Of a DNA stretch of 64,000 nucleotides, positions 2,447 to 41,766 are shown in pieces. The DNA comes from Candidatus Muiribacterium halophilum (GTDB lineage: Bacteria > Muiribacteriota > Muiribacteriia > Muiribacteriales > Muiribacteriaceae). Under the pieces are notes generated by a model, which did not search any database, was not told where the DNA came from, and saw nothing but the letters and a program-made list of their open reading frames with translations. Both the position numbers and the translations under genes were made by a program. The stretch is taken from positions 84,603-148,602 of the forward strand of contig JALOAD010000001.1 of assembly GCA_023228995.1 (NCBI GenBank), given 5' to 3'. Position 1 is the first letter of the stretch, and every line of letters starts with the position of its first letter.

Positions 2447-5400
2447 TTAATTATTAAAATTTGGTTTGTATAAAGGTTCCCATTTAGTTGCATTTAAATC
2501 AAAATCATTTGAGTAAACATTTTCATTAAGTTGCCAACCTGATAAATTTTGATTAAATGCTATAGATTCACAAAACATAAAACTCATATCTGTAACATTT
2601 GAAGTCTTCCAATTTGATATATTTTGATTAAATGTTGTAGCATAAGAAAACATTCCATACATGTTTGTAACTTTTAAAGTATCCCAATTACCTATATCCT
2701 GATTAAATGCACTAGCATAAGAAAACATTAGCTTCATATCTGTAACATTTGAAGTATCCCAACTACTTATATCCTGATTAAATGCTGTTGCATTAAAAAA
2801 CATTCCATACATATTTGTAACTTTTGAAGTATCCCAATTACTTATATCCTGATTAAACACGCTAGCATAATCAAACATATAATACATATTACATTTTTCA
2901 CCAAAACCTTTATCCCACTTTAAAGAAACTCCACCATTATTAAATACACTTGCATTAGAAAACATAGAATTCATATTTATAACATTTGAAGTATCCCAAC
3001 TTCCTATATCCTGATTAAATGCTTTAGCATAACTAAACATACTAGTCATATCACAATTTTCACCAAAACCTTTATTCCAATTTAAAGAAACTCCATCATT
3101 ATTAAATACACTTGATTTATAAAACATTTTTTCAAAATTTTTAACTTTTGAAGTATCCCAACTTCCTATATCCTGATTAAATGCTATAGATTCACAAAAC
3201 ATAAAACTCATATCTGTAACATTTGAAGTATCCCAACTTCCTATATTCTGATTAAATGATCCTGTACTTTGAAACATTCGACTCATATTTATAACATTAG
3301 AAGTATCCCAATTACTTATATCCTGATTAAATACTGTAGCATAATAGAACATAAGACTCATATCTGTAACATTTGAAGTATTCCATACTGATAAATCCTG
3401 ATTAAATGCTTTAGCATGACCAAACATACCAGTCATATCACAATTTTCACCAAAACCTTTATTCCAATTTAAAGAAACTCCATCATTATTAAATACACTT
3501 GATTTATAAAACATTTTTTCAAAATTTTTAACTTTTGAAGTATCCCAACTTCCTATATCCTGATTAAATGCTATAGATTCACAAAACATAAAACTCATAT
3601 TTATAACATTAGAAGTATCCCAACTACTTATATCCTGATTAAATTTTTCAGCACAATAAAACATATAAGATAAATTCTCAACTGTTTTAGGAATGCTATT
3701 TGGTAATTTTTTAAAAAATATATAACTATCATCATTAAATGAACTCAAACAACCTTCAAGAGAATTTAAACCAATATCTCCAAATGAAATTATTTCAACA
3801 AGATAATTATGCCAAGGTGCATTTCCTGTTAGAGATTTTAATTCATCAGAAGTAAAGCCTAAATGATCAGCTTTGCCATATATTTTTACAGTATACTCAT
3901 TTATTGAAGTATAATTATGAGATGGTTGATCTATCTTTATATTCTCAATTTCACTACCATCACCCCAATCTATAAATACATTTAAATTACCTTTAAGAGG
4001 AATTACTAAAGCATCATTTGAATTTACTTTAAATTTTATTTCAAGAAGTTTTCCCCATTGAGCATATAATATTGTATCTTGAGTTATATTAAAAATAGTC
4101 CCTGGTAAATAAAATATTCCATTTCCATCACTTGATGTATTCCAAGCAAAAAATTCGTAATCTGTTTTTGTTAAATCTCCTTTCCCTGCTACTGAAACTT
4201 CTGGATTATAATCAGCGGAATTTACTAATGGTATTGTTCCACCTGTATTATCATTTCCATTATAAGTTAAATTATATTGTTTTATTTCAAAATCCGCTGT
4301 TATAATCACTTCTTTTGTTGGCATTGTGTAATTATAAGGATTTGAAGTTGATATAACTTTTTCACCAACTTTCCATTCTTTGAATTTATAATTTGTATTT
4401 GCTTCTGCTTTTATTTCTACTATCTGACCTTGAGAATAAAGTCCATTATTTGTTAATATTTTTCCATTATCGCCTGAATTAAAGGTTATTAAATATGTTT
4501 TATCCGATATAACAGTATTTTCAGTTATATTGTTAAAATATGTTGTTAATTCGGTCTTATCTGAAGAATTTAAAGTAGAAGTTACCTTTGTTATAATTGC
4601 ATTTTTATCTTTAATATCTACAAAATTATCAGTAATATAACATGCAATTCCAAGTTTTAATATTTTCTTAGTATTTTCAGTTTTGTTAATATTATCTATT
4701 GATGTATTAAGAGCATCTATTGTATTTCCAGTAATATTCTCAATATTTGTATTATTTACTGATACAACCGAACTTAATAAATTAATAATATCAAATTTAG
4801 GTTCATCAGTTGGAATTAACTCTTGAAGTTTTTCAAATTTTTCAACACTTAATAATGATTTAACATTATTTGCAAGAGGTTTTAAGATTTTTGTTATATT
4901 TGCAGTATTAATATCATCTTTATTTATTGCAGATTTTTCAAGCAATTCAATTAATCCATTAACTGCTATAGCTGATTGTAACCTTTTAATATGTTCAATA
5001 TTTAATTTTTCATTATCTTCAGGAAGAAATACCATTGGATTTGATAATATATCAGAAGAAGTAATTTTTATTTCAGCAGAAAAATCAAAAGCTTCATTCA
5101 GGATTATTGCAACTTCTTCTTTTGATAAATTATATTTAGAAACAAGAGTTGTTAATGGCGATAATACCACTCTTCCACTTATATCATTTTGTTCTGCAAT
5201 ACATTCAAGCAAAGGACCTGAATAATTTATACCATTATGTTTACCCTTAAATTCAGCATGCATTTTTATTTTTTGACCAATAATAATTTCGGTTGAAAAG
5301 TTAAATTCACCCTTATCATCAGAAATATCAGATATTATTTCATTAGTATCAATTATTCCATTATTATTAGAATCTATAAAAAACTTTGCACCAATAATAT

Positions 5401-5536
5401 ATGGATCAACCGCAACACCTGTTTTTGATAAAACCTTAGAATTATTAGTAACTCCACCACTACTTCCACCACATCCAATTAAAACCACAATTAACAATAA
5501 AGAAAATAATAATATTAGTTTGTTTTTATACAACAT
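2447..5536 (-). CDS. Large surface lipoprotein (lipobox LIGCGGSSGG). The N-terminal half has Listeria-Bacteroides-type repeat domains; the C-terminal half has more than 15 DUF285-type repeats (FNQDIxxWDTSNVTxMxxMF).
   Basis: Signal peptide + Cys lipobox. Reiterated ~26-aa FNQDI(S/G)xWDTSxVxxMxxMF units match the DUF285 (Mycoplasma/Listeria lipoprotein) repeat signature. YNLTYNGNDNTGG...FFAWNT and ITFNSGDNG...FKEWKVG segments resemble the Flg_new/InlB B-repeat. Confidence 0.8.
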   Translation of the reverse strand: MLYKNKLILLFSLLLIVVLIGCGGSSGGVTNNSKVLSKTGVAVDPYIIGAKFFIDSNNNGIIDTNEIISDISDDKGEFNFSTEIIIGQKIKMHAEFKGKHNGINYSGPLLECIAEQNDISGRVVLSPLTTLVSKYNLSKEEVAIILNEAFDFSAEIKITSSDILSNPMVFLPEDNEKLNIEHIKRLQSAIAVNGLIELLEKSAINKDDINTANITKILKPLANNVKSLLSVEKFEKLQELIPTDEPKFDIINLLSSVVSVNNTNIENITGNTIDALNTSIDNINKTENTKKILKLGIACYITDNFVDIKDKNAIITKVTSTLNSSDKTELTTYFNNITENTVISDKTYLITFNSGDNGKILTNNGLYSQGQIVEIKAEANTNYKFKEWKVGEKVISTSNPYNYTMPTKEVIITADFEIKQYNLTYNGNDNTGGTIPLVNSADYNPEVSVAGKGDLTKTDYEFFAWNTSSDGNGIFYLPGTIFNITQDTILYAQWGKLLEIKFKVNSNDALVIPLKGNLNVFIDWGDGSEIENIKIDQPSHNYTSINEYTVKIYGKADHLGFTSDELKSLTGNAPWHNYLVEIISFGDIGLNSLEGCLSSFNDDSYIFFKKLPNSIPKTVENLSYMFYCAEKFNQDISSWDTSNVINMSFMFCESIAFNQDIGSWDTSKVKNFEKMFYKSSVFNNDGVSLNWNKGFGENCDMTGMFGHAKAFNQDLSVWNTSNVTDMSLMFYYATVFNQDISNWDTSNVINMSRMFQSTGSFNQNIGSWDTSNVTDMSFMFCESIAFNQDIGSWDTSKVKNFEKMFYKSSVFNNDGVSLNWNKGFGENCDMTSMFSYAKAFNQDIGSWDTSNVINMNSMFSNASVFNNGGVSLKWDKGFGEKCNMYYMFDYASVFNQDISNWDTSKVTNMYGMFFNATAFNQDISSWDTSNVTDMKLMFSYASAFNQDIGNWDTLKVTNMYGMFSYATTFNQNISNWKTSNVTDMSFMFCESIAFNQNLSGWQLNENVYSNDFDLNATKWEPLYKPNFNN

Positions 5537-5709: not shown

Positions 5710-7068
5710 ATGTTATTATTTGCTATATATAATAATAGCAAACGAGGAAATCTGATGGAACAAGCTTTCTGGGTAATACTAACTTTATCCTCTGTAATAT
5801 CAATTCTAATATGTATTATATTTATATATTTTTACAATAAATTCAAGAAAACTTTCTTCTTAGAACTTGCTTTAGCATCATTTTTGTATGCTATACATAT
5901 ACCGGTAATAAATTTAATAACATCAATGACAAAACAAAGTTTAATAGGAATATTATCAGATAAAATCCTATTAATTTCAGCTTCTTATCTCTTCGTACAC
6001 GCAATATCAAAATTAACTGAAATAAAATTTTACAAAATAATACATTCTATATTCATTTTTGTTTTTTTCCTTGTTATAACACTTGAAATTTATTGCAATG
6101 AAATTTTCATTAAAGGTTCAGCTGGATTAATAATTTTTGCAACAGCATTTATTTATTGCGGAATACTTTTTTTTAGGAATAAAACTTTTATACGACATAA
6201 TCGAATTATACTCGGAAGTCTTTTTGTTATATGGGGATTAATACCATTTTTATATATACCTTATTATCTTAATGATAAACTTCCATTAATTCCTGTAATG
6301 CTTATTTTTACTGTTAAATTATTAATAAATTTTTTTATAATAATATTATTTTTTGAAGAAAGTAGAAAAGAAGTACTTATTAAAAATTTTGAAATTACAT
6401 CTTTGGAAAATACTAAAAAACAAATTCTATCAACAATAACACATGATATAAAATCTCCTCTTACATCATTAAGCGGTTATTGTGAACTTATAGTATCTGA
6501 AAAACTTGGAACTCTTACAAAAGAACAAAAAGAAAAAATATTAATAATGAAAAAAAATATCGATAAAATCAATTCAATTACTGATAGAATATCTTTTTAC
6601 TCAAAACTCACACGTTTTGAAAAAATCAATCAAGTTGAAAAAATATCAATAAAAAAACTTCTTTTTGATATTTCTGTTTATATTAGAAAAATAAACCCAG
6701 GAATATCAATCAATTTTGAATTTCCTGAAGATGAACTTATAATTCAAGTTGATTTCACCAAATTATCTGAACTTTTTTATATTTTAACCGATATAATGAC
6801 TAATTTTGAAAATAATCCATCAATTAATATATTATTTATAAGTTATCAAGATAAAGACAAAAACTATATTTTTGAAAATAAATTTTATTACAAAGAAAAA
6901 ATACAAAAAAATGAAATACTAAACATAACAGATGAGCAAAAGACATTTGGTGCTAATTTAATAAACAAAATATTTACTGATATTAATGCAAATATGAATT
7001 TAGATATAAAAGAAAATGAAAATTGTCTTATTATAAAAATAAAATTATTAGGATTTCCCCTTGATTGA
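5710..7068 (+). CDS. Polytopic membrane sensor histidine-kinase-like protein with a degenerate ATP-binding domain
   Basis: About 6-7 N-terminal hydrophobic helices, then a HisKA-like H-box (ILSTITHDIKSPLTSLSGYCELI). The C-terminal region has an N-box-like LTDIMTNFENN but lacks clear G1/G2 (DxGxG/GxGxG) motifs. Confidence 0.55.
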   Translation: MLLFAIYNNSKRGNLMEQAFWVILTLSSVISILICIIFIYFYNKFKKTFFLELALASFLYAIHIPVINLITSMTKQSLIGILSDKILLISASYLFVHAISKLTEIKFYKIIHSIFIFVFFLVITLEIYCNEIFIKGSAGLIIFATAFIYCGILFFRNKTFIRHNRIILGSLFVIWGLIPFLYIPYYLNDKLPLIPVMLIFTVKLLINFFIIILFFEESRKEVLIKNFEITSLENTKKQILSTITHDIKSPLTSLSGYCELIVSEKLGTLTKEQKEKILIMKKNIDKINSITDRISFYSKLTRFEKINQVEKISIKKLLFDISVYIRKINPGISINFEFPEDELIIQVDFTKLSELFYILTDIMTNFENNPSINILFISYQDKDKNYIFENKFYYKEKIQKNEILNITDEQKTFGANLINKIFTDINANMNLDIKENENCLIIKIKLLGFPLD

Positions 7069-8025
7069 ATCGATTATCGAATAATATTCATCATATTCAT
7101 CAACCCATATAACTTTTACACCAAGCTCGTTCAAAACACTTTCCTTAAGATAGTCATTAAGATATAAAAGACTTTTAATATCTTGATTATGAATATTTTT
7201 ATCATAAGAATGTTTTTGAACAGTATAATTAACAACACCTTGAAAATTAAGCTGAACAATTTCAAGAATTCTTCTTAAATTAGCATCATTAAAAGAAGTT
7301 CCAACAAAAAAAGAACCTGAATCCTTAAAACTAGTAAGCTGAACAATATTAGACCACGAAAACATTTCGGAAGAAGATTGTCTATTATAATCATCATCTG
7401 AAAAAACAATATTCATATTATCAAAATCTTTAATATGCTGAGGAAGATAACCATGAACATGATAAATTGGAAGAGAACTCTCTAAAAATTCAACATTACT
7501 ATCAAAAATACTCTTATGTTCAACATTATATTTATTAAGTTTTCTTTCAAGAAGATCATCAAAATTATAAGATATAACAGATTTTATATAATTAAACCTT
7601 GTAGGAACACAAAGCCGACCAATAGAACTAATAAGAGGGTTTTTCATAAAAACTTCTTTTGAATACAAAGCTCTTTCAATAGCTTCAAAAAAAGCTTCTG
7701 GACTACCAAATCCACTTTTTATATATCTAGCCTGTAAAATAAGCTCATCAGTTTTAAGTTTAAGGCTTTCCCAATCAGGCAAATCCATAACAACTTTATT
7801 AAGCACAAGGTCATTATAAAGAGCTTTAACAAGATCAGGCCACAAAGGAAGACCCGCAGCTTTTGAAACACCAGAACCCAGAACTAAAGTAAGTCTATTT
7901 GAATTATAAATTTTACGAATATCATAAATAAACTTATCTCGGTTTTTGTCCCAAGTTGTAAAACACTCTGTTAAGTCAAATGCACTAATTTTATTCATTC
8001 TATTATTATACCATTTATCAAGCAT
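7048..8025 (-). CDS. Stand-alone SIR2-like domain protein (SIR2_2 / defence-type sirtuin-like, predicted NAD+-consuming effector)
   Basis: 325 aa. Rossmann motif LVLGSGVSKAAGLPLWPDL (GxGxS..GlPxW), SYNFDDLLE (the TTNYDxLLE motif of SIR2_2) and YHVHGYL (HG motif). Same motif set as ThsA/DSR-type SIR2 domains. Last gene of the 12272->7048 operon. Confidence 0.7.
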   Translation of the reverse strand: MLDKWYNNRMNKISAFDLTECFTTWDKNRDKFIYDIRKIYNSNRLTLVLGSGVSKAAGLPLWPDLVKALYNDLVLNKVVMDLPDWESLKLKTDELILQARYIKSGFGSPEAFFEAIERALYSKEVFMKNPLISSIGRLCVPTRFNYIKSVISYNFDDLLERKLNKYNVEHKSIFDSNVEFLESSLPIYHVHGYLPQHIKDFDNMNIVFSDDDYNRQSSSEMFSWSNIVQLTSFKDSGSFFVGTSFNDANLRRILEIVQLNFQGVVNYTVQKHSYDKNIHNQDIKSLLYLNDYLKESVLNELGVKVIWVDEYDEYYSIIDSIKGKS

Positions 8026-8116
8026 AAAAACAATAGAATCCCGTGAATTGAGGTCAAACCCGCAGAGGCTGTTGATTTATTCAGAATCATGCAGGGATGA
8101 CAAAAATAAAGATAGT

Positions 8117-8524
8117 TTAAAGATTTAACTCAATATTATTCAATCCGTTTTCATAAAATTCATCCATATATTTTTTAAATATATTTTTGAATTCATCTAC
8201 CTGATCAGAATTCATCTTGTCTGAAAAATAAAGATTGTGTTTGTTTATTATATCTCTTTCAGATAATCTTCGTCCAAGTTGTTCCCAAAATATATTATCA
8301 ACAAACTTTTCTTTGAAATCTTTTATTTCCAATAGTGTATTGAGTTCATCTTGTCTTGATCTAAAGCCTTTTTCTTCAAGAGCTTTAATTACTTTTAATT
8401 CCAGTTCTTTTAAATTATCATCTTTCTCAAACACTGTAAGACATGGCTCATTAAATTTTTCATTACCAAGATGTATTAATTTTAAAAGTAGTTTATATTC
8501 TTTTTCTGACAAGTTTAGTGCCAT
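8117..8524 (-). CDS. Small predicted all-helical hypothetical protein (135 aa)
   Basis: Open frame overlapping the upstream gene by 32 nt (translational coupling). Lys/Glu-rich helical composition, no recognised motif. Confidence 0.5.
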   Translation of the reverse strand: MALNLSEKEYKLLLKLIHLGNEKFNEPCLTVFEKDDNLKELELKVIKALEEKGFRSRQDELNTLLEIKDFKEKFVDNIFWEQLGRRLSERDIINKHNLYFSDKMNSDQVDEFKNIFKKYMDEFYENGLNNIELNL

Positions 8525-8873
8525 GTTTTATCTTCCTCTCTTTTCTTGCAAAAAATACATCACCCGGAACCCAACCTCTTTCTCCAATAGCATTTTTACA
8601 ATAATACCACGAAGATGATTTTTCAAGAATTGCTAATTTTTCTCCAGTTTTAATATCAAGTTCTCCTGAATAATAATCTTTTTTTATTTTAACATGAAAA
8701 TCTTCGCCAAATTCAATATAATCAATAGGTACCCATGCTCTTTTACCGTTTTCTTTAACACACCATCTAAATCCTGGCCAAGGAGATTTCTTTTTTGTAT
8801 ATATACAAATCTCATCTTGCTCGTAAAAAATATTTTCATCTGTTGACTTTCTATAGTCTTTTAATGCTATCAT
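8493..8873 (-). CDS. Small cytoplasmic protein with two tandem SH3-like domains (126 aa)
   Basis: Two consecutive segments fit the SH3 pattern (ALxDY...E.xF..GD.I.....WW....GxxGxVPxxYV): ALKDYRKSTDENIFYEQDEICIY...WPGFRWCVKENGKRAWVPIDYIE and KIKKDYYSGELDIKTGEKLAILEKSSSWYYCKNAIGERGWVPGDVF. It starts 4 nt after the STAND gene stop. Confidence 0.55.
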   Translation of the reverse strand: MIALKDYRKSTDENIFYEQDEICIYTKKKSPWPGFRWCVKENGKRAWVPIDYIEFGEDFHVKIKKDYYSGELDIKTGEKLAILEKSSSWYYCKNAIGERGWVPGDVFFARKERKIKHGTKLVRKRI

Positions 8874-8877
8874 TCTT

Positions 8878-11439
8878 CTACTCCATTATAATACAATAAT
8901 CATTTTTTAATTCAAACATATATGTTTTAGTCTTTCTGGAATTTACAAGTGTATCCATAAATATCTTCCTAAGACTGTGTACACTTACTCTTAGAAGATT
9001 CAAGTCTGACAAATCTTCAAGTTTTCTTCCCCATACTTTTTCATAAATTTCATCTGAATTTAATTCTTTTCCTATATTAACACAAAAAAGTTTTAAAAGT
9101 TTTAATAATATGGTCTTTTTAAAAATATCATGTTTTTTTCCAAATACTAAAATTTCTTGATTAATAAAATCAATATAAATGTTATATTTCTCTTTTTTAC
9201 TGCTATATTCTTTCATTTCATAATATTCAATTTTTCTTTTAACACCGTTTACATTAATTTCAAAAAAACTACCACTTTGGTTTTTTTCAACAATAAATCT
9301 CAATCTATTTATTTCTCTAACTATAATAACAGAATTATAAAATGATAATCCTTGAATTATATTATTAATATCCTTGTTTTCTATCATATTTACTATTGAT
9401 TCAGCAAATACTTTCATATATTCCCAATCAGAAATATTTAAACTTTCTATTTCATTTTTTAAATTAATTTTATCTTTATCAATAATATATTTTAACACGA
9501 TATAATCTAAAAAAAACAAGTTATAAAATATGTAATAATTATTTTCTTTAAAAAATTTTAAGCTTTGCTCTATTTTAATATAAGCTTTGTAATAATCGTT
9601 TTTTAAAATATATATATGACCTAGTAATGCACTGTAAAAACCGTTTGTATTTTCCAATTCAAGAAATTTATCACCTGTTATTCCAAAAATTGATTTTTTT
9701 TCAAAAATTTTAATATATAAAATAACATATACAATTCTCTTATTAATAGTCTTTGCTTTATCATAATCTGCATAATATAAAAATTGTCTATAATACTCAT
9801 AAGCTTTCATTTTTGATCTTTTTGATAATTCAACAAGCGATAAATTAAAATATATATCTGATAATTTTTGTTTGTCATAATATGGATATTTTTCAATTAT
9901 ATCATTTAATACAAAATGACATTTATCATGTTCCATGAGATATAAATAACATTCACCCATTAATGCTTTTAAATTAATAAGTAATTTAAGCGAAACATTT
10001 TCACTTGATTTATCAATAAAATCTTTAAGATTTATTATACAGCTTTGAAGTAAACATAATTCTCTTTCTTTAAAAATTGTAATATATTGTATAATTATTT
10101 TTTCAGGTTTCGTTAAATTATCTGTTTTTAATTGTTCTTTAAATGAATTATTCAAATAAAAGGAATTTACTTTCAATAATAAATCTCTTTTTTTAGAATC
10201 ACATAATCTTTCTACATTTTCAATAAAAATATTTTTCTTTTCTTTTGTTAAAGCTTGTATCCACATATTATAATAATAAATTTCATCGTTAAATTCGCAA
10301 AGATATTCAATGTTTTCTTCAAGAAAAATATTCAAGTCAATATTATTTACAAAATCTATTGGAAAATTTTCAAAAGCATTTTTTATATATAAACAACATT
10401 TAAAATAATCTTCCGATGATTTAGAAAAAGTTATATATTCAAAAAAATTATCGACTGAAAATATATATTTTTCTTCGTAAAATTCAAGTATTTTTTTAGA
10501 TGTTTTTGTTATAATTTTTTTATCTGAATTATTAAGAATTGATATTTTCATCATATCTGAACATTTAATATTATTATCAATATCTTGTTCAATTACAAAA
10601 TGATTTTTTAAAAAATTTATATCATCTTCTTTAATATTAAAAAAATCAATAAAGTTTTTTTTATTTACTGCTATATTAAAAAAAGATAATAAAAACGTTA
10701 TTTCCTTCCTTTTTTGTGTAAGACCTTCATAATCAAGATAATTAATTTCTTTATTTATTGCATTAAGAAATGCATTTCCTTCAAATATATCATTTATTGA
10801 AAAATCATAACTTGTAAAAAGTGATATAAAAACTTTAATATATAAAGGAATTCCACCTGTTTTTTTATAAATTTTATTAAGCCAAAAAGAAGATATTTTT
10901 TTGTTATTTTGTCCTATAGAAATTTTTTCAACAAGTTTTACAAACTCAATATAATCAAGTTTTTTAACATTATAATGATAAATATCACTTTTTACACTTA
11001 AAGGAATTTCGATAAATTGTGAAGATAAAACAATAAGTTTTGAATTGTAAAAAATATCAAAAGCTTCTCTTATAAACTCTGAATGATCAATAAGACAAAA
11101 ATTGAAATTATCAAGTAAAATATAATTATTGTTTTTTTCTAAATATTCCAGAAATTCTCGAATATTGGCATTTTGATTGATTTTTAAATTATATTTAGTA
11201 TTTAGTAAATTGATTAATTCTTTAAAATCCATATTTCTTGTTACTTTAGCATATAATATTTTATTGTTTTTTCTATCAATATTAATATTTTCTAGAGCTT
11301 TTATAATAAAAGAAGTTTTACCAACTCCACGCATTCCATATATAAAAAAAATTGAAAAATCGTTGAATTTGTTTTTTAATCTTTCAATTTCATCTTTTCT
11401 ACCAGTAAAATTAACTAATTTTGAAAATTCTCTTTTCAT
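8878..11439 (-). CDS. STAND-type P-loop NTPase (AAA_16-like, helical/TPR-like middle) with a C-terminal OmpR/PhoB-type winged-helix DNA-binding domain
   Basis: 853 aa. FTGRKDEIERL + Walker A GMRGVGKTSF + Walker B-like YILLDNFNF in the first 120 aa. A long helical repeat region follows. The C-terminus (DIFKKTILLKLLKLF..GKELNSDEIYEKVWG....LLRVSVHSLRKIF) aligns with the Trans_reg_C motif (EF.LL.LL....G.V.sRe.L...VWG.......rtVdVHIrRLRKKL). Confidence 0.75.
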   Translation of the reverse strand: MKREFSKLVNFTGRKDEIERLKNKFNDFSIFFIYGMRGVGKTSFIIKALENINIDRKNNKILYAKVTRNMDFKELINLLNTKYNLKINQNANIREFLEYLEKNNNYILLDNFNFCLIDHSEFIREAFDIFYNSKLIVLSSQFIEIPLSVKSDIYHYNVKKLDYIEFVKLVEKISIGQNNKKISSFWLNKIYKKTGGIPLYIKVFISLFTSYDFSINDIFEGNAFLNAINKEINYLDYEGLTQKRKEITFLLSFFNIAVNKKNFIDFFNIKEDDINFLKNHFVIEQDIDNNIKCSDMMKISILNNSDKKIITKTSKKILEFYEEKYIFSVDNFFEYITFSKSSEDYFKCCLYIKNAFENFPIDFVNNIDLNIFLEENIEYLCEFNDEIYYYNMWIQALTKEKKNIFIENVERLCDSKKRDLLLKVNSFYLNNSFKEQLKTDNLTKPEKIIIQYITIFKERELCLLQSCIINLKDFIDKSSENVSLKLLINLKALMGECYLYLMEHDKCHFVLNDIIEKYPYYDKQKLSDIYFNLSLVELSKRSKMKAYEYYRQFLYYADYDKAKTINKRIVYVILYIKIFEKKSIFGITGDKFLELENTNGFYSALLGHIYILKNDYYKAYIKIEQSLKFFKENNYYIFYNLFFLDYIVLKYIIDKDKINLKNEIESLNISDWEYMKVFAESIVNMIENKDINNIIQGLSFYNSVIIVREINRLRFIVEKNQSGSFFEINVNGVKRKIEYYEMKEYSSKKEKYNIYIDFINQEILVFGKKHDIFKKTILLKLLKLFCVNIGKELNSDEIYEKVWGRKLEDLSDLNLLRVSVHSLRKIFMDTLVNSRKTKTYMFELKNDYCIIME

Positions 11440-12227
11440 TTTTTTTCCTTAAAACATTGTGATAAGATTTTAAATGCTTTACTTGGACAAGCAATAATAT
11501 CTTTTTTAAGCGGTTTTCCATTTAAAATATCATAATCAAAAAATAAATCTTCTCCATCTATATATTTCACACAAAGACCTGAAGCATAACAAATACTAAC
11601 AGCGCCTAAAATATCCCATATTTTAACTTTACCACAATGAGCAGCAAGTACACTTGATTTTGCAGCAAAAACAAGATGAAGAGCAGTCGAACCAAAAGAT
11701 CTTAATTTACCTGGAAATTTTATTGAAATATTTCTCATACTTTTGGAATCAATACATATAGAATCTGTTTTACAAAGATCTTCACGGTTAAAGACACAGG
11801 AATTAATTTCAGAATAATTAAGAAATGCACCAAAATCAGGTCCACCATAATAAAGTTCATCAAATATTGGAGAATATATAAGTCCAAAATAAGGTTTTTT
11901 ATCTTTCAGAAGTCCAATACTTATGCACCAGCCAGGAAGTTTCATTGCATAAGAATGAGTGCCATCGATTGGATCGACAGCCCATATAAATTCAGATTCT
12001 AAATTCAAATTATTATTATTACCTTCTTCACCTATAACAATTCCTTCAAATTCCTCTTCTAATTTACTTTTTATAAATATTTCAATTTCCTTATCAGCAA
12101 TTGTTACATGAGAACCATCTGGTTTTAAATCGTATCCAGTAAATGGATTTTTATAATATCTTAAAGCAATTTCACCTGCTTGTTTTATTATTTCTACAGT
12201 TTTTGTAATTAATTTTTCATTTTCCAT
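11436..12227 (-). CDS. Inositol-monophosphatase (FIG/IMPase) family phosphatase (SuhB/CysQ-like)
   Basis: Motifs IGEEG, WAVDPIDGTHSY (WxxDPxDGT) and KIWDILGAVSI (WDxxA). The ORF track begins at a TTG at 12272, but that TTGACT looks like a -35 box. The ATG at 12227 (MENEKL) has a GAGGA SD. Stop overlaps the STAND start (ATGA). Confidence 0.8.
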   Translation of the reverse strand: MENEKLITKTVEIIKQAGEIALRYYKNPFTGYDLKPDGSHVTIADKEIEIFIKSKLEEEFEGIVIGEEGNNNNLNLESEFIWAVDPIDGTHSYAMKLPGWCISIGLLKDKKPYFGLIYSPIFDELYYGGPDFGAFLNYSEINSCVFNREDLCKTDSICIDSKSMRNISIKFPGKLRSFGSTALHLVFAAKSSVLAAHCGKVKIWDILGAVSICYASGLCVKYIDGEDLFFDYDILNGKPLKKDIIACPSKAFKILSQCFKEKK

Positions 12228-12239
12228 AATATCCTCAAG

Positions 12240-12278
12240 ATAAATACTACAATTCCAATAGTATAAAGTCAAAAAAAA
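12240..12278 (-). promoter_or_regulatory. Putative sigma70-type promoter of the IMPase-STAND-SH3-SIR2 operon (TTGACT-17bp-TAGTAT, then GAGGA SD)
   Basis: Minus-strand read: tttttttttGACTttatactattggaattgTAGTATttatcttGAGGAtattATG. It sits immediately after the subtilase terminator. Confidence 0.35.
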
Positions 12279-12302
12279 AGTGCAGATTTCTCTGCACTTT
12301 TT
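12271..12302. terminator. Bidirectional rho-independent terminator (A-run, AGTGCAGA-tttc-TCTGCACT, T-run)
   Basis: Perfect 8-bp stem flanked by A9 and T5. On the minus strand it ends the subtilase gene. Confidence 0.65.
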
Positions 12303-12333
12303 GGAATTTTTAACTAGCTATACAATTTTGAAG

Positions 12334-13746
12334 TTAAAAAGCAAATTCAATTGCAAGTCTTTTTTCAAAATCAGTCATTGGAGCTCTTAAATGTAATGAT
12401 CTTGTGATGTTATCAGCAATTTCATCCATTGAAGCAGAAATTGCATCATTGATATTAGCAAGTGATTTTGAATATCTTGCTGCCTGAACTGCTCTGTTTA
12501 TATTTATTACTCCGCCTGAAATAACTTTATCTGAAAGCCAGTCTTTTTTGTCAACTGTTTTCATTATTATATCTTTAACTTCAACAGCTGTGAGTTCAGG
12601 GTTTTCATTAAGCATAAGTGTAGCAACTCTCGCAGCATAAGGAGCAGCCTGAGAAGTACCAGACATATAACCCATTTTACCATTAGGATAAGTTGATAAT
12701 ATATTAACACCAGGAACAGCTACATCAACTTTATTTATAGCAAAACATGAAAAAACAGCAAGGTTTTTATCATTATCAGTTGCTGCAACAACAAGTTTAT
12801 TGTCAATTTTTACATCATTTGGAGATGATACAATGTTTTCGAGATTTTCAGAAGAATTCCCAGCTGCTATTACAATTAAAGCATTAGGAACTTTTGAGAA
12901 AAGCTCTTTATCTTTTGGAAGTAGAGCAAGTTCAACAAAAAGATTGACCATTTCTTGAACATCTTCTTCAGTAGGATTTGCAAAACCCCATTGTTCAACC
13001 ATAGTTTGTTTAAAAGAAGCCATAAGCTGTTGGTTTTCAGTACCAAATGAACAGTTAATAACTCTAGGTGCTAATTCTCCAACATAATCTCTTTCTTTTG
13101 CAACACCTTGAGCCTGCTGCATACCCATATAAGCAAAATAATTTTTAATTTCTTCCATTGTAGGAGCTTTTTCTTCTCCACTTCTTGTAGTAAGAGATGC
13201 TCTTAAACCTCTTGCAGCATCTTCAATAAGCTGAGCTACTGGTGGTTCTCCAACTGGAATATGAGAAATTGCTTTCATATTAATTACATCGTTATTTCTA
13301 GCGATAATACCGCCAACATGTGAACCATGAGCCCATCCACCTGTAAAATTAACCCATGCATTGAATTCTTTATTTTGATAATTAGTTAAAAGAAAATTGA
13401 ATTCATCCGCACTTAAAGAATCTTTACCGTAAACTGTGAGTTTACCAATAAGTTCCATAAATCTAAGAACATCATCATATCTTGGTGGCTGATATTCTGA
13501 ATGAACAAGAGTTCCAGTGTTTTCTACAAAATTCCAACCATAAATATCATCAATATAACCGTTACCATCTTCATCTACACCTTCAATTCCATTAAATTCA
13601 GCTAAATTAATATCAGCAACAGGTCCAAGTTTTTCATGATTAAAATCAGTACCTGAATCCATTACTAATACTGGAATTTTTGAGTCAGCAAATGAATTTA
13701 AACTAAGAATTGCTACCATAGTTATTGCTATCATGCTTTTTTTCAT
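12334..13746 (-). CDS. Secreted subtilisin-like serine protease (peptidase S8)
   Basis: Signal peptide. Catalytic triad contexts VLVMDSGTD (Asp), GGWAHGSHVGGIIA (His), GTSQAAPYAARVATLM (Ser). Confidence 0.8.
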   Translation of the reverse strand: MKKSMIAITMVAILSLNSFADSKIPVLVMDSGTDFNHEKLGPVADINLAEFNGIEGVDEDGNGYIDDIYGWNFVENTGTLVHSEYQPPRYDDVLRFMELIGKLTVYGKDSLSADEFNFLLTNYQNKEFNAWVNFTGGWAHGSHVGGIIARNNDVINMKAISHIPVGEPPVAQLIEDAARGLRASLTTRSGEEKAPTMEEIKNYFAYMGMQQAQGVAKERDYVGELAPRVINCSFGTENQQLMASFKQTMVEQWGFANPTEEDVQEMVNLFVELALLPKDKELFSKVPNALIVIAAGNSSENLENIVSSPNDVKIDNKLVVAATDNDKNLAVFSCFAINKVDVAVPGVNILSTYPNGKMGYMSGTSQAAPYAARVATLMLNENPELTAVEVKDIIMKTVDKKDWLSDKVISGGVININRAVQAARYSKSLANINDAISASMDEIADNITRSLHLRAPMTDFEKRLAIEFAF

Positions 13747-36664: not shown

Positions 36665-39600
36665 TCAAAACAATTGTTGATTTTCTAATTTTTCTGTTCT
36701 AAATATTGATTTTTCAAGATTTTCATCCAAAGATATATTTTCAGAGTTTTTTATTTGTCTATCAATTTTCAAATATTCATCTTTTTCAAAAGTGCTTTTT
36801 TTAATTTTAAGCATATAAATTAGATTAAAACAGTTAAATATTGAATTTTGTTTAAGATCAGATAAACATATAAGCTGAGTATTAAATTTTTTGGCAATTT
36901 CAAATAAAGGAATAAGAAGATGTTGACTTGATATTGGACCGAATGGATTGTCCATTATAAGTATTCTTGAATCTTTTCCTGCTAAATTCTCAGAATTATT
37001 TATCATAGTATTATTTCTTATATATGCCATTAAAGCTGATATAACTGCAAAAAATACTACAAATTTTTCACCACCAGAATTTTCACTTATTGCACTTTCC
37101 CATTTTTTCCAACGATTATTTGCTGTATTAAGATCAATTTTATAAACACTTACTGGAATTGAATTTCTTCCTGAATACTGATTTATCAATTCTCTTGTAG
37201 ACATTAATCTAAAAATACTTTTATTTATTTTTTCGTTTTCATAATTTTGTCTTTTTTCTTCTCTAATATTTTGTATACAAGAATCAATATATTTTTCTAT
37301 TCTTTTTTTAGCATTTTCTTCATTATCAATATCTGTGTTTATCTTTATCATCTGAATTGGTCTGATTTTTTCTGATAATTTCACAGAAGATGATAATGCT
37401 ATTTTACCAAGTTCTTCAAATACTCTTTGAGCATGCACAAAACATTGAAATACAACATCATTTCTATTTTTTTCAACATTTTCAAGTCTTATTCTATTTA
37501 TTTCTATTAATTCACTTATTTTTATTATATAATCTTTTAATCTTTCAAAAAGATAATAATATTCATTGTATTTTTTATTTTTCCTTTCAATCATACTATC
37601 AATTGAAGTAAAAAGATTATCTATATTTTGATTTTTATGTTTAAATTCAGATCTTAATAATGAATAATTACCAATAAGCTGTTTTTCTTCATTATCCATT
37701 TGTTCTTTAAACAATTTATAATTACTTTCAAGATTTTTATAAATTATTTCAATGTTATCTTTTATATCAAATTCAATTATAGAGCTTGAAGGTAAATTTA
37801 AAATATCAATTCTTTGTTTAATTTTTTTAAATTCAGCAATTTCTTTTCTTAACTTTTTTTCAAGTAATATGTAATCTTTGCGATTTGAATTAATTGTATT
37901 TTTTCTTGCAATAAAATCTTGTTTGATATTTTCTCTTGGACAAGCTTTATCATAATCTAATCTTTCAATTTCCTTAAAAGCTTGTTCTTTCCCTCTATTT
38001 TCAGAACTTATATCTTTATCAACTATATTATAATCAGATATAATAGAATTTAGTTTATTATTTTGTAAATAGATATCAATTTCTGTTTTTTCTTCAATTT
38101 CTATGTTATATTCAATGTTATTCACTTCTTCTTCGTTAAATTTAAATCTTGAAAGTTCTTTTGTAAATTCTGATATTTCATTAATTGATTTTTCTTTTAA
38201 GATTATTAATGCTGAAAAATCTTTTGAATATTCTTTTTTCAAATTCTCATATATACTTAAAAGTTCTTCAATATTTTCTTTGAGTATTTCAGATTTTTCT
38301 TGAGCATTTGAGAATTTTAATTTATATTTTTCACATTCTGTTAATTTATTTTTTATAATTTCAATATTTTTATTTAATCCTGAAATTTCATTATTTATTT
38401 TTATAATTTCATTTTCATTTAATAAAATATCTTTATTGAGTTTTTCTATTGTTTTTTGAAGATTTTTTCTTTTTTCTAATATTCTGACATATTCTGAATC
38501 TTTCACTATAAATTCATTGAAATCATGTAATTTGACATTTAATAAATTGAGTTTATTTTGTTTTTCATTTAATTTATTTATATTATTCCTGATATTTATT
38601 TCTGCATTTTTATTTTCATTATTTAAAATTTCAATTTTTTTTTCTATTTCATTAGTTTTTTGTAATAAATCTCTTTCATTTTTTTCAGCTTGATATAAAA
38701 AATCCTCTTTATAATCAAATTCTTGAAGAATTCTAAAATCATTTGATGCAATATTATAAGAATTAGCAATATCCTTATATATATTTTCAAGAGATTTTTT
38801 TTCATTTTCTTTTTCATTAAGAAATTTTTCAGTTTTATCAATTTCAAATATTCGTTTTTCAACATTAACAATAAAATTCAAATCTTCATTGATTTTAATA
38901 AATACATTATTGTTTTCAAAATCAACATTTGTATTTTCATAAAAAAATAAAGGAATTGAACTTTTAATAAATTTATCTTTAAATACATCTTTAACTTTAT
39001 TAATTTGATCTTTTTTTAATATAATTGAATAAGCAAGAAGAGGATTTTTTTCAAGTAAAGAATTTCTATTATCTTTTTTTTGATTTTTAATAAAATTCTC
39101 ACCAGTTTCAAATTCAATATTATTATTAATCAAAATATCAATTATATTTTGATCTATATGAAGAGAATTTTGTTTAATTCCTTTAATAATATTTTCAATT
39201 AATTTTATATCAGAAGAAAGTTCTTTTTTTCTATTATCATAATCAATAAGAATATTTTTAAATTCAAATTCAATATGTTTTTTATCAAAAATTCTTTGTT
39301 TTTTTAATTCATATTTTTTTAATATTTCATAAGATTTATCTCTTTTATCTGTGAATAATGCAATTTCATCTATTTTTTTTTGATAAAGTAAAATATTATC
39401 TCTAACTTTATTAGAAAAGTCTTTGATTAAATCAGAATTATTTTGCAATTTATTTTCTAATTTTAAATTTTGCTCATTTATTTGTAAAATCTCATTATTA
39501 TGATTTGCAATTTTATTTTCAATTTCACTTATAAATAAATTAAACTCATCTATATCAATCTGCCCAAGAATATTTCTTAATATTTTAACATTATTATTTT

Positions 39601-41074
39601 TTTCAAAATCCAATTGATATTTTTCAAATATAATAGCTTTTTCATTTACAGAACCAAGACTAATATTAGAAGAATTAATTGTTTTTTTAAATTCTTTTTG
39701 TTTAATTAAAATTTCTTCAAGATTTTGCTTTGAAATTTGTTTATTATTTTCAATATTTTTATATTGATTTTGTAAATTTACAATTCTTTCATCAAACTTT
39801 ATTTTTAGAGAATATTCAATATGAGATAATCTTTCTTGTATATTGGAATTTTTTTCAAGACTTAAAATTTTTTCATTATAACCTTTTAAATCATTTTCAC
39901 AATTGATTTTTTTATCATAAATCTTTTTAAATCGAAGTTTTTCAAGAAATATATTAAGTTTTTTTATATTATCTTTTAAAATATTAATCTTTTCTAATAA
40001 TGTGATTTTTCTTTTTTCCAAAATTTCAAGCTTATCAACAGAATTATAATAATCAAGACTTCTTTCTTCATAATCAATATTTTTAAGAGAATATTCAGCT
40101 TGAATTAAAAATTTAGAAATATCATTTTCCTCTTTTTCAAGTTGTTCTATTTTATCACTTAAAATATTTTCAATATATTTAATTTTCTTTTCAGTATTTT
40201 CTTTATTTTCAATAATTGCAGTAAAAATCTCAATATCTTTTGAAAAATCCTCAAGTTTTTCTGAAAAATTCTGCAAAAGCTCTTTTTCAATAAGAAATTC
40301 CTCATTTCTAATTATTTCATCAACAAGATTAGACATCATTTGTCCAAGATGCCCAGCTTGATTTTTATCTTTATAGAAAACCTTTAATATTGTTTTATTT
40401 AAAAACCATTCATTAATCAATTGATCTGAATTTTTACATTTTTGAAAAATCTCATCAAGACCACCTTCACTATCATTTATACCAATGATTATATTTTTCC
40501 ATTCATCCTGAGAAATTCCATATTCAGATAAATGCTCTCTATATTCTTCCATATTTTCCTGAGAAAATATCCTAAAATCCATTGAAGATTTTTTAGCTCT
40601 TTCATCAGCAAATTCTCTAGCTTTTTTATAATTCATAACATTAATAACATTTCCTTTCCTAGCAGAAAAACCAATATTACTAATATCATAAGAATTTGAC
40701 TGTGAATATTTTGATGTAAACATAAAAAATCTAAGCCTTGAGTTTTTTTCTCCATCCATTCCATGAAACTCATGATTTTCACAAACAATACCTGTTAAAA
40801 GATAATCAGAAGAATAATCAAGTTTCCATTCTATCATTATAAAACAAGGTAATTTAGAAGTTTTAAAAAAATCAGCAAATTTTCTACCTTGAATCTTTGC
40901 CCCAGGTACAATTGGTTGAAGCATAACTTGAACAAGAACACTCTTTCCTCCACCATTTGCAAGACTTAAAAGAGCATTTTCACCTTTATAAAAATCAAAC
41001 ATTTCATCAGTAATATGTCTTGTAAAATTATTATATGAAAAATTAAGAACTCTTATTCGATTGATTTTAGGCAT
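36665..41074 (-). CDS. jetC: Wadjet JetC / MksB-like SMC-family ABC ATPase (1469 aa)
   Basis: N-terminal Walker A LANGGGKSVLVQV. Very long coiled-coil middle. C-terminal signature NSGGEKF and Walker B ILIMDNPFG. Last gene of the jetDABC operon. Confidence 0.75.
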   Translation of the reverse strand: MPKINRIRVLNFSYNNFTRHITDEMFDFYKGENALLSLANGGGKSVLVQVMLQPIVPGAKIQGRKFADFFKTSKLPCFIMIEWKLDYSSDYLLTGIVCENHEFHGMDGEKNSRLRFFMFTSKYSQSNSYDISNIGFSARKGNVINVMNYKKAREFADERAKKSSMDFRIFSQENMEEYREHLSEYGISQDEWKNIIIGINDSEGGLDEIFQKCKNSDQLINEWFLNKTILKVFYKDKNQAGHLGQMMSNLVDEIIRNEEFLIEKELLQNFSEKLEDFSKDIEIFTAIIENKENTEKKIKYIENILSDKIEQLEKEENDISKFLIQAEYSLKNIDYEERSLDYYNSVDKLEILEKRKITLLEKINILKDNIKKLNIFLEKLRFKKIYDKKINCENDLKGYNEKILSLEKNSNIQERLSHIEYSLKIKFDERIVNLQNQYKNIENNKQISKQNLEEILIKQKEFKKTINSSNISLGSVNEKAIIFEKYQLDFEKNNNVKILRNILGQIDIDEFNLFISEIENKIANHNNEILQINEQNLKLENKLQNNSDLIKDFSNKVRDNILLYQKKIDEIALFTDKRDKSYEILKKYELKKQRIFDKKHIEFEFKNILIDYDNRKKELSSDIKLIENIIKGIKQNSLHIDQNIIDILINNNIEFETGENFIKNQKKDNRNSLLEKNPLLAYSIILKKDQINKVKDVFKDKFIKSSIPLFFYENTNVDFENNNVFIKINEDLNFIVNVEKRIFEIDKTEKFLNEKENEKKSLENIYKDIANSYNIASNDFRILQEFDYKEDFLYQAEKNERDLLQKTNEIEKKIEILNNENKNAEINIRNNINKLNEKQNKLNLLNVKLHDFNEFIVKDSEYVRILEKRKNLQKTIEKLNKDILLNENEIIKINNEISGLNKNIEIIKNKLTECEKYKLKFSNAQEKSEILKENIEELLSIYENLKKEYSKDFSALIILKEKSINEISEFTKELSRFKFNEEEVNNIEYNIEIEEKTEIDIYLQNNKLNSIISDYNIVDKDISSENRGKEQAFKEIERLDYDKACPRENIKQDFIARKNTINSNRKDYILLEKKLRKEIAEFKKIKQRIDILNLPSSSIIEFDIKDNIEIIYKNLESNYKLFKEQMDNEEKQLIGNYSLLRSEFKHKNQNIDNLFTSIDSMIERKNKKYNEYYYLFERLKDYIIKISELIEINRIRLENVEKNRNDVVFQCFVHAQRVFEELGKIALSSSVKLSEKIRPIQMIKINTDIDNEENAKKRIEKYIDSCIQNIREEKRQNYENEKINKSIFRLMSTRELINQYSGRNSIPVSVYKIDLNTANNRWKKWESAISENSGGEKFVVFFAVISALMAYIRNNTMINNSENLAGKDSRILIMDNPFGPISSQHLLIPLFEIAKKFNTQLICLSDLKQNSIFNCFNLIYMLKIKKSTFEKDEYLKIDRQIKNSENISLDENLEKSIFRTEKLENQQLF

Positions 41075-41766
41075 TATATTGCATCCTCAAATATTTCTCT
41101 AATATCTTTAACTCTATCCTGATCAAGATAATAATTTATCATTATATCATCAAGCTTAGATGTAGATCTAATTTCTCTATTATCATCAAGTATAATAATA
41201 AGATCTTCTTTTTGCATAAATCTTGCAGCTTTAATAACAGTATAAGTTTTAGTTTTTCTTGAATTTTCATCATATCCTTGTTTTGAATCCCATTCTTGAG
41301 CTATTTTTATAAAATTAATACTATATTTTTCTTCCATTTTTTCATAATCTTCCGAATTTGAAAGAATACGAATAAATCTTTCATCAAGTTTTTCAACAAT
41401 TTCATGAATTCTAATAAAATCTCTTTGTTTTGGATTACGATTTTTACCACCATAAAAAATATGAAGAATAAACATAGATATATACGAATTAAGAAATACA
41501 TCAACAAGTCTTGCATCACTTCCTAACCATTCTCTCATATTTTTAGAAGTCCATCCCAAAAGATCATTTGAAGAATTCGGGATAATATAAGCTATATGAG
41601 AAAGTTCAACAATATCAAATTCAAAAACTTCTTCAAAATCATATAGAATAGTTCTAATATCAGGATTTTTAAATTCAATAAATAATTCAAGATCATTATC
41701 CTTAGATAATTCACCTTTTTTTAGAAGTATTCTAAATATATTAAGAGCTGTTTTTAATTCACTCAT
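41074..41766 (-). CDS. jetB: Wadjet JetB / MksE-like (DUF4194-type) subunit
   Basis: 230-aa acidic helical protein between the kleisin-like and SMC-like genes. 1-nt and 4-nt start/stop overlaps. Confidence 0.55.
   Translation of the reverse strand: MSELKTALNIFRILLKKGELSKDNDLELFIEFKNPDIRTILYDFEEVFEFDIVELSHIAYIIPNSSNDLLGWTSKNMREWLGSDARLVDVFLNSYISMFILHIFYGGKNRNPKQRDFIRIHEIVEKLDERFIRILSNSEDYEKMEEKYSINFIKIAQEWDSKQGYDENSRKTKTYTVIKAARFMQKEDLIIILDDNREIRSTSKLDDIMINYYLDQDRVKDIREIFEDAI

Follow-up and report, generated by a model that had tools for sequence, protein, structure and literature searches.

Does a STAND NTPase gene packed tightly beside a SIR2_2 gene mark an undescribed anti-phage operon, or can such a neighbourhood arise from parts of different age? 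The question is raised by five minus-strand genes in a 64,000-nucleotide stretch of Candidatus Muiribacterium halophilum (assembly GCA_023228995.1, contig JALOAD010000001.1), hereafter the window. From the 5' end, they encode an IMPase-family phosphatase, a STAND NTPase with a C-terminal winged helix-turn-helix (wHTH) domain, a tandem-SH3 protein, a small helical protein and a SIR2 protein. An earlier note on this DNA had proposed a split Avs-like defence system or, as a fallback, a regulatory circuit. The account favoured here, with a confidence slightly better than even, is that the locus is a mosaic, in which an ancestral and independently expressed SIR2 gene stands beside an IMPase gene and a STAND-wHTH gene with two small partners was inserted later. 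The locus does not look like one co-inherited system, nor like a conserved new anti-phage operon.

The evidence that carries this account is the pattern of synteny and indels observed directly in four Muiribacteriota lineages, namely those of the window, of a long-read contig (L011; ENA ERZ21862645 ctg21418l), of M. halophilum BM706 (GCA_002869225.1) and of L010/L012. The window SIR2 protein is identical to NCBI protein P0001, from a Candidatus Muirbacterium halophilum metagenome-assembled genome (MAG), and exact-match contigs in several metagenomes have the same gene order as the window. Recurrence of the layout in another genome was found in one other lineage only, that of L011, which is related to the window and carries all five genes in unchanged order, flanked as in the window by the S8 peptidase and histidine kinase genes. 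The SIR2 orthologue of BM706 (61% identity; MetRS, 62%) has the same histidine kinase, MetRS and FliE/F/G neighbours as in the window and lies directly, at 80 nt, downstream of an IMPase-family gene, with no STAND, SH3 or helical gene between them. In the L010/L012 lineage the SIR2 orthologue (62% identity) is convergent with an S8-to-IMPase gene pair, and the trio is likewise absent. An IMPase-family gene borders SIR2 in all three Muiribacteriota lineages, in differing orientations. Because SIR2 stays in the same neighbourhood in BM706 and L010/L012 while STAND, SH3 and helical genes are missing there, the three middle genes are, as judged from gene order, a lineage-specific indel, for which one gain in the common ancestor of the window and L011 would be the parsimonious explanation; the SIR2, IMPase, S8 and histidine kinase genes would then constitute an older syntenic block. 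None of 78 distant SIR2 loci, taken from GTDB species representatives, presented an IMPase, STAND, SH3 or helical homologue within 10 kb. With SIR2 occurring without the trio in two lineages, no recurrence at the 78 distant loci, and STAND paralogues and SH3 homologues located elsewhere, the supposed co-inheritance of a five-gene cassette largely fails.

Two further observations concern these contigs. In L010 (137-1710) and L012 (2459-4032), SIR2 is coupled through a 4-nt overlap not to an IMPase gene but to one for a 209-aa class I SAM-methyltransferase-like protein, so that the upstream partner of SIR2 differs in every lineage. On the L011 contig, frameshifts interrupt the S8, STAND and histidine kinase genes alike, most likely as a result of homopolymer errors in the assembly; that the L011 STAND gene is a pseudogene is unlikely, the S8 and histidine kinase genes on the same contig being split as well.

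Purifying selection on the locus was assessed by the ratio of nonsynonymous to synonymous substitution rates (dN/dS, Nei-Gojobori) between the window and L011, at a dS of ~1. All five are, by this measure, real and constrained genes, since dN/dS ranges from 0.08 to 0.36: 0.08 for SIR2 and for the helical gene, 0.125 for SH3, 0.21 for IMPase, and 0.36 and 0.08 for residues 28-590 and the C-terminus of STAND, respectively, with MetRS (0.09) and S8 (0.08) as references. Protein identities between the two lineages are 89% for the S8 peptidase, 70% for IMPase, 79% for SH3, 84-85% for the helical protein, 85% for SIR2 and 84% for MetRS. The STAND gene (50-60%) is the fastest-evolving of the locus, with 50% identity and a dN of 0.40 over residues 28-590; conservation is lowest at residues 321-480 and highest in the wHTH (78-85%).

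The STAND protein matches the Pfam families NB-ARC (31.3 bits; threshold 23.5) and nSTAND6 (31.9 bits; threshold 27.7) and contains Walker A (GMRGVGKTS) and Walker B (ILLDN) motifs, with the wHTH at about residues 779-853. Of the domains first assigned to it, the NTPase thus stands, as NB-ARC/nSTAND, and so does the wHTH, by way of its relatives; the AAA_16 match (23.4 bits) is below threshold, as is that to Trans_reg_C. When 1.84 billion representative proteins were searched exhaustively with HMMER, only the protein itself and the two L011 fragments scored below 1e-30. The search also returned some 50 distant relatives of ~890 aa and ~25% identity, which align with it at both ends, over the NTPase and over the last 110 residues. 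The nine full-length relatives that were scanned all combine NB-ARC, TPR_12/TPR_MalT and a C-terminal Trans_reg_C, the latter scoring 29-44 bits in seven and 26.7 and 23.4 bits in the other two (threshold 26.2). No Pfam TPR was called in the helical body of the window protein, for which a TPR-like sensor is suggested by its alignment with the family. Walker A and the recognition-helix signature of the wHTH (VWGR...D..LRV.V..LRK) are conserved across the family. Walker B reads hhhhDN (residue 110-111) rather than hhhhDD in the window protein, in L011 and in several relatives, including the Muiribacteriota paralogues P0143 and P0154, and DD in most Wallbacteria paralogues; the DN form may imply altered ATP hydrolysis.

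The contexts of this family were also observed directly. Eight of the ten relatives looked up come from a single Candidatus Wallbacteria MAG (GCA_028687545.1; L096 and L098 are among the loci), which encodes at least eight paralogues, including two adjacent pairs, one of them tail-to-tail; the remaining two are P0143, from BM706, which has no trio at its SIR2 locus, and P0154, from the window's own sample. Paralogue neighbourhoods were read at five distinct loci, and the neighbouring genes, often tightly packed or overlapping with the paralogue and often coding for enzymes, comprise pst-phoU (one Wallbacteria paralogue directly follows pstSCAB-phoU), GH114, GH57 with AP_endonuc_2, CTP_transf_3 with VWA, and a beta-lactamase-fold gene. 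At none of the five loci was an SH3, helical, SIR2 or IMPase homologue present.

Against solved structures, the STAND family profile best matches PH0952, a TPR-sensor STAND protein (9e-60), followed by AfsR (4.5e-25). The TPR-sensor STAND regulators MalT of E. coli, AfsR (SARP-NB-ARC-TPR) of Streptomyces, GutR of B. subtilis and PH0952 of P. horikoshii are likewise built of a STAND/NB-ARC NTPase, a helical sensor of the TPR type and a single DNA-binding HTH. As in the MalT/AfsR type, NTPase and TPR sensor share one polypeptide here, the TPR being seen in the relatives, and the HTH is present by the family signature. In AfsR the OmpR-type domain is N-terminal and accompanied by a BTAD, and the C-terminal HTH of MalT is of the LuxR type, whereas the order in the present family is NTPase-TPR-wHTH, with a wHTH of the OmpR/PhoB type at the C-terminus. 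The window protein is only ~25% identical to its nearest paralogues, and its two coupled small genes were not seen beside any of them. MalT, GutR and AfsR are recognised as non-immune STAND transcription regulators (PMC12803255). On account of the NTPase-TPR-HTH order, the paralogue expansion and the metabolic contexts, the STAND family fits a pathway-type transcription factor better than an Avs-like sensor. The Avs-like scaffold originally seen in this protein is accordingly not retained, as it belongs to a regulator-like NB-ARC-TPR-OmpR wHTH family with contexts of the MalT/AfsR type and has no PADLOC match, and the same family evidence favours the fallback reading of a regulatory circuit. 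The family, represented in Wallbacteria and Muiribacteriota and expanded there, was previously uncharacterised.

Other searches added little to this set. A word-indexed homologue search with the STAND protein recovered only itself and L011, and one with the family alignment was dominated by generic TPR proteins; tblastn against plasmids with the STAND protein, a paralogue and the helical protein gave no match, and a metagenome scan with the subfamily alignment yielded four distant STAND loci. Horizontal transfer, considered in view of the low GC content of the STAND gene (19%), was rejected: its GC3 (0.106) equals the host gene value and the low GC stems from amino-acid composition. The STAND gene is not a recent transfer.

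The SIR2 protein is a bare NADase-type SIR2_2 domain, without SLOG, TIR, HerA or any other sensor or partner domain. The SIR2_2 call made earlier on the 325-aa protein is sound: SIR2_2 is the sole SIR2-type Pfam family matched (1e-12; no PF02146), and the motifs GSGVSKAAGLPLW, SYNFDDLLE and HVHGY are all present. N154 and H191 are invariant in an alignment of 40 SIR2 homologues and align with the catalytic N112 and H152 of ThsA (TTN(112)YD and YKMH(152)G). An AlphaFold2 (AF2) model built from the 40-sequence alignment, with a mean predicted local distance difference test score (pLDDT) of 88.4, retrieved BcThsA (8BTO) first in a Foldseek search against the PDB (E 1.8e-16; template modelling (TM) score 0.69), then KomC (8ZSF; target-normalised TM 0.78) and DSR2, and the sequence profile found ThsA (6LHX) at 3.8e-16, then KomC, DSR2 and FAM118B. 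In PADLOC the protein matches ThsA1 (1e-14) over the SIR2 part only (profile positions 4-276 of 478). These profile and fold matches agree with the proposed NADase-type class (ThsA/DSR2/KomC-like). The protein has only two cysteines (C21 and C139) and hence no sirtuin Zn module; neither the Zn-Cys4 module nor the PF02146 profile of the classical sirtuin deacylases (CobB/Sir2) was found in it. It is predicted to be an NAD+ hydrolase and not a deacetylase.

Among described systems, Thoeris ThsA is thus the best profile and fold match, with equivalents of its catalytic Asn and His present in the window protein. ThsA has a SLOG/STALD domain, whereas the window protein has no Pfam STALD match and ends with the SIR2 domain, and no adjacent ThsB/TIR gene appears among the matches listed for the window. 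KomC and other stand-alone or trans-acting SIR2 proteins (SIR2-HerA, DSR2, FAM118B) likewise present a bare SIR2 of ~260-320 aa with the same fold; the sequence similarity between KomC and the window protein is confined to the N-terminal Rossmann motif. KomC is an earlier example of a SIR2 that depends on an activator encoded by another gene, and in Kongming a nucleotide-enzyme homologue partners the bare SIR2. HerA, HAM1 (KomB-type) and deaminase domains are absent from the five proteins by Pfam and by PADLOC, used in version 2 (2023), which may predate Kongming. Distant SIR2 homologues are encoded by isolated genes; most have 370-600 aa and additional N-terminal domains, among them TIR in some proteins. 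The short homologues in other phyla have heterogeneous neighbours (Tc toxin, TPR, DUF4365) and no recurrent partner.

Both domains of the tandem-SH3 protein are above the Pfam gathering threshold (SH3_2 and SH3_1), and its halves best match the NCK1 and myosin-I SH3 domains among solved structures, that is, the canonical eukaryote type. Homologues of 113-124 aa were found by tblastn on replicons of Listeria, Vibrio, Moritella and Haloferax, where the gene contexts are unrelated. They are isolated genes (L105-L108) spread over Bacteria and Archaea; in Vibrio the gene belongs to an array of small genes, most of them hypothetical, beside a RelE/ParE-Phd toxin-antitoxin pair. The family is one of generic small proteins and therefore cannot be called a defence adaptor. 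The helical protein is known only from the window and L011; it has no Pfam match above the gathering cut-off (DNTTIP1_dimer is sub-threshold, 17.5 versus 26.1 bits) and no PADLOC, PHROGs, PDB sequence, JGI metagenome or plasmid match, and its single-sequence AF2 model, with a pLDDT of 43.6, is too poor to be of use. The IMPase (Inositol_P, 1.6e-35) retains the metal and substrate motifs GEEG, DPIDGT and WD..G; its scores against the NCBIfam equivalogs are all far under the cutoffs, and an assignment to SuhB, CysQ or HisN is not possible. The IMPase-family and tandem-SH3 assignments of the earlier note were right.

The block was delimited by listing the open reading frames (ORFs) of all six frames for 5-15 kb of the window, and all five minus-strand genes proposed earlier are present with the ORF extents then given.

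Table 1. Genes and putative expression signals of the five-gene locus, in window coordinates.
Feature	Position	Strand	Description
SIR2 gene	7048-8025 (325 aa from ATG 8025) or 7048-7998 (316 aa)	-	ORF listing; Pfam SIR2_2
Helical-SIR2 spacer	7999-8116	-	Imperfect hairpin, TTGACC/TATTGT, extended -10
Helical protein gene	8117-8524	-	135 aa; all-helical orphan; GAGG upstream
Tandem-SH3 gene	8493-8873	-	126 aa; two canonical SH3 domains; predicted cytoplasmic; own GGAG
STAND gene	8878-11439	-	853 aa; NB-ARC, helical/TPR-like body, C-terminal OmpR/PhoB-type wHTH
IMPase-family phosphatase gene	11436-12227 (ORF to TTG 12272)	-	263 aa; Pfam Inositol_P
Promoter-like TTGACT-17-TAGTAT before IMPase gene	12272-12244	-	Both hexamers kept vs L011
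Terminator hairpin of upstream S8 peptidase gene	12275-12302	-	12-bp stem, T-run

The claimed couplings are all correct from the coordinates: the STAND start overlaps the IMPase stop as ATGA (11436-11439), a 4-nt gap (8874-8877) separates the STAND stop from the SH3 gene, and the SH3 and helical genes overlap by 32 nt (8493-8524), an overlap kept in L011. The gene starts need two corrections. The IMPase gene begins at ATG 12227 and not at TTG 12272, which falls within the promoter, and the SIR2 gene probably begins at ATG 7998, as in P0001 and L011. A Shine-Dalgarno sequence is found in four genes of the block and is lacking for SIR2, which lies 91-118 nt from the helical gene, depending on its start, and overlaps a convergent histidine kinase gene by 21 nt at its 3' end. 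Because of this separation and the lack of a Shine-Dalgarno sequence, there is no need to regard SIR2 as the final cistron of a single operon. Of the five genes of the operon proposed in the earlier note, the first four are tightly packed, while SIR2 is spaced apart and has an extended -10 of its own.

Promoter-like matches are not enriched in this AT-rich (26% GC) DNA (60 found versus 48.8 expected), and three terminator-like sites were found versus 0.6 expected. Both the terminator and the promoter that was said to follow it were located. The terminator stem, both hexamers, the GAGG and ATG 12227 are kept in L011 while the promoter spacer, the flanks and the terminator loop diverge, and the terminator and IMPase promoter signals are for that reason probably real. 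Upstream of SIR2, an extended -10 (TGgTATAAT, 8013-8005) lies 6 nt before ATG 7998, and its L011 equivalent (TGaTATAAT) is at a similar distance from the start. Since this TGnTATAAT element is conserved and a Shine-Dalgarno sequence is lacking, the extended -10 seems to serve SIR2 as a promoter of its own, and the mRNA may be leaderless. A TTGACC/TATTGT site (8057-8030) is also present in the helical-SIR2 spacer, of which little is conserved in L011. A canonical terminator was not detected in this spacer, so that read-through into SIR2 from upstream is possible.

The same spacer presents two secondary features. A GC-richer segment of ~50 nt (about 8060-8100) forms an imperfect hairpin without an Rfam match, which is absent from L011, where the spacer is 41 nt only; an Rfam scan of 6800-12600 gave nothing credible. 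The SIR2 -10 element is flanked on both sides by an 11-nt inverted repeat (7997-8039; ATTCTATTATT / AACAATAGAAT, 91% complementary) that extends as far as the start codon; folded as RNA it reaches -12.3 kcal/mol (z -2.6). It could serve as an operator or, in read-through transcripts, as a hairpin occluding the start codon, and the signal is weak in L011 and not conserved there.

Taken together, the locus would consist of two layers. The first would be an ancestral Muiribacteriota block of S8 peptidase, IMPase, SIR2, histidine kinase, MetRS and fliE/F/G genes, in which SIR2 would be a vertically inherited, stand-alone domain of the ThsA/KomC/DSR2 type. The second, carried by the window lineage and L011 only, would be a three-gene insert of STAND-wHTH, tandem SH3 and helical genes that became translationally coupled to the IMPase gene and driven by its promoter. 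The STAND protein would act as a signal-transducing transcription factor of the MalT/AfsR/PH0952 kind: binding of a ligand or partner to its TPR-like sensor would release autoinhibition and permit ADP/ATP exchange and NB-ARC oligomerisation, which would place the OmpR-type winged helices on DNA and switch on the target promoter or promoters. The SH3 and helical proteins, because they are translationally coupled, would most likely be modulators or ligand adaptors of STAND. Whereas gene structure, domain families, synteny with its indels, purifying selection and family contexts were observed here, the NADase activity, the DNA binding, the choice of target promoters and any working connection of the STAND trio with SIR2 are inferred.

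Several points weigh against the mosaic. The lineage comparison rests on four Muiribacteriota lineages only. The trio sits exactly between IMPase and SIR2 and has been retained across a dS of ~1. The NTPase/sensor part of STAND evolves ~4 times faster than its neighbours, which is typical of immune sensors, and low constraint would look alike. The SIR2 clade clearly belongs with the defence effectors, given its ThsA/KomC/DSR2 fold and the fusion of some homologues to TIR, and a bare NADase needs some regulator, none being identified in the genomes without the trio. Regarding STAND as a regulator, its Trans_reg_C match (23.9 bits versus a threshold of 26.2) is sub-threshold in the window protein, the operator-like repeats in the two spacers are weak and not conserved in L011, and no DNA-binding site, regulon or ligand of STAND was identified. 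Alternative explanations retain some weight because a sensor-less NADase must be controlled, because the insert adjoins SIR2 and because four lineages only were compared.

The broadest of these alternatives holds that STAND, with the SH3 and helical proteins, is an infection or stress sensor that gates the sensor-less ThsA-like SIR2, either transcriptionally or by contact. This is considered unlikely without being negligible, and the same low probability applies to what it would amount to, namely that one Muiribacteriota lineage has built a two-tier, NLR-like defence on a bare SIR2 of ancestral origin. The transcriptional form, in which the STAND-wHTH protein with its partners senses infection or stress and activates the SIR2 promoter as part of a defence or dormancy module, is rated marginally lower again. 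It would make sense of a bare SIR2 without a sensor domain, of a STAND output domain that is probably a DNA-binding wHTH, of the promoter-like element of SIR2 directly downstream of the trio with an 11-nt inverted repeat around its -10 and start codon, and of the maintenance of the trio beside SIR2 under purifying selection in two lineages. However, two lineages retain the SIR2 orthologue and lack the trio, and SIR2 expression therefore cannot generally depend on the STAND regulator; moreover, no OmpR-type direct repeats were found in the two spacers searched, the helical-SIR2 spacer diverges between the window and L011, and the regulator paralogues adjoin metabolic genes.

Activation by contact, the headline proposal of the earlier note, is improbable. 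In this split Avs/NLR-like scheme STAND would sense a phage protein, oligomerise and activate SIR2 in trans through the SH3 and helical adaptors. Stand-alone SIR2 proteins activated in trans exist, KomC in Kongming being an example (PDB 8ZSF/9V0G), and the NADase effector class of SIR2, the fast-evolving STAND sensor region and the tight gene packing are compatible with such a scheme. As in Avs and SIR2-STAND fusions, a STAND NTPase, with Walker A and B in its core, a helical sensor and an effector of the SIR2 type occur at one locus. In contrast to Avs, where the effector is fused or consistently co-occurring, SIR2 is here separate and its co-occurrence with STAND is confined to one clade, the window and L011 only, and the STAND protein has a putative DNA-binding C-terminus, lacks a PADLOC match and belongs to a regulator-like paralogue family whose relatives lie outside defence contexts. 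The SH3 homologues are generic and the partner proteins present no PxxP ligand motif except LPLWP in the invariant NAD-loop of SIR2, which is furthermore not translationally coupled to the other genes and is encoded outside any defence island. The proposal is hence weakly supported and not favoured.

Least probable of all is a conserved two-gene IMPase-SIR2 module, NAD(P)/nucleotide-metabolising or Kongming-like, with the STAND trio as an unrelated insertion: IMPase-family genes border SIR2 in all three lineages despite rearrangement and the IMPase fits no housekeeping equivalog, but orientation is not kept (in L012 the genes are convergent and the IMPase is coupled to the S8 peptidase), the IMPases of BM706 and the window are ~36% identical versus 61% for SIR2 and 62% for MetRS, no IMPase accompanies any of the 78 distant SIR2 loci, and inherited synteny alone can explain the adjacency.

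If the mosaic is accepted, it carries a caution for the annotation of defence loci. A STAND NTPase gene packed beside a SIR2_2 gene can arise through insertion of a regulator cassette near an older gene of the effector type, and evidence of co-inheritance should be required before such a pair is counted as a new defence system. It also places a vertically inherited, sensor-less ThsA-like SIR2 in a candidate phylum. Should the STAND trio nonetheless control the NADase, a transcription-coupled or adaptor-mediated route would be added to the known modes of SIR2 activation. The claim that no named system has this composition agrees with PADLOC, which matches SIR2 only, and with the literature: searches on nSTAND6 and on SIR2 with STAND NTPase, SH3 and anti-phage terms found nothing, and a paper on STAND, SIR2 and effector-associated domains, searched by term, does not mention SH3 or wHTH (PMC12803255). 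As far as found, the domain order with a C-terminal OmpR wHTH and the SH3 and helical companions are undescribed.

The surroundings of the locus were examined with PADLOC, Pfam and PHROGs. The STAND, SH3, helical and IMPase proteins gave no PADLOC match, and none of the five proteins matched PHROGs; a phage origin is therefore not supported. The locus is not in a defence island: its flanks are of a housekeeping and signalling nature (S8 peptidase, histidine kinases, MetRS and flagellar genes), and the other 43 window ORFs, with MetRS, trehalose synthase, xanthine dehydrogenase and SmpB among others, are those of a housekeeping chromosome. In the flanks only the S8 gene matches a defence model, weakly and through a generic subtilase profile (3.2e-08). 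For the other window ORFs, seen as the best 25 of 27 families, the PADLOC families among the matches listed are Wadjet, PDC-M51A and subtilase; on the same basis no TIR/ThsB was found among the 43 ORFs or the five proteins, and no integrase or transposase family is among the Pfam matches listed.

The nearest defence system, and the only one recognised in the 64 kb, is a complete type III Wadjet operon ~24 kb away (36668-44418, minus strand), with the order JetD (354 aa, TTG start at 44418), JetA, JetB and JetC (1469 aa) and PADLOC E-values of 4e-162 for JetA3, 4e-144 for JetC3, 1e-81 for JetB3 and 3e-39 for JetD3; this region holds the window's lowest-GC stretch (16-17% at 38-40 kb). On the other side, the histidine kinase gene that overlaps the SIR2 3' end adjoins a gene (2447-5536, minus strand) for a lipoprotein-like protein of 1029 aa that is rich in DUF285/BspA-type repeats (FNQDIS.WDTSNV units; Pfam DUF285, 7.6e-131), which is absent from the syntenic region of BM706.

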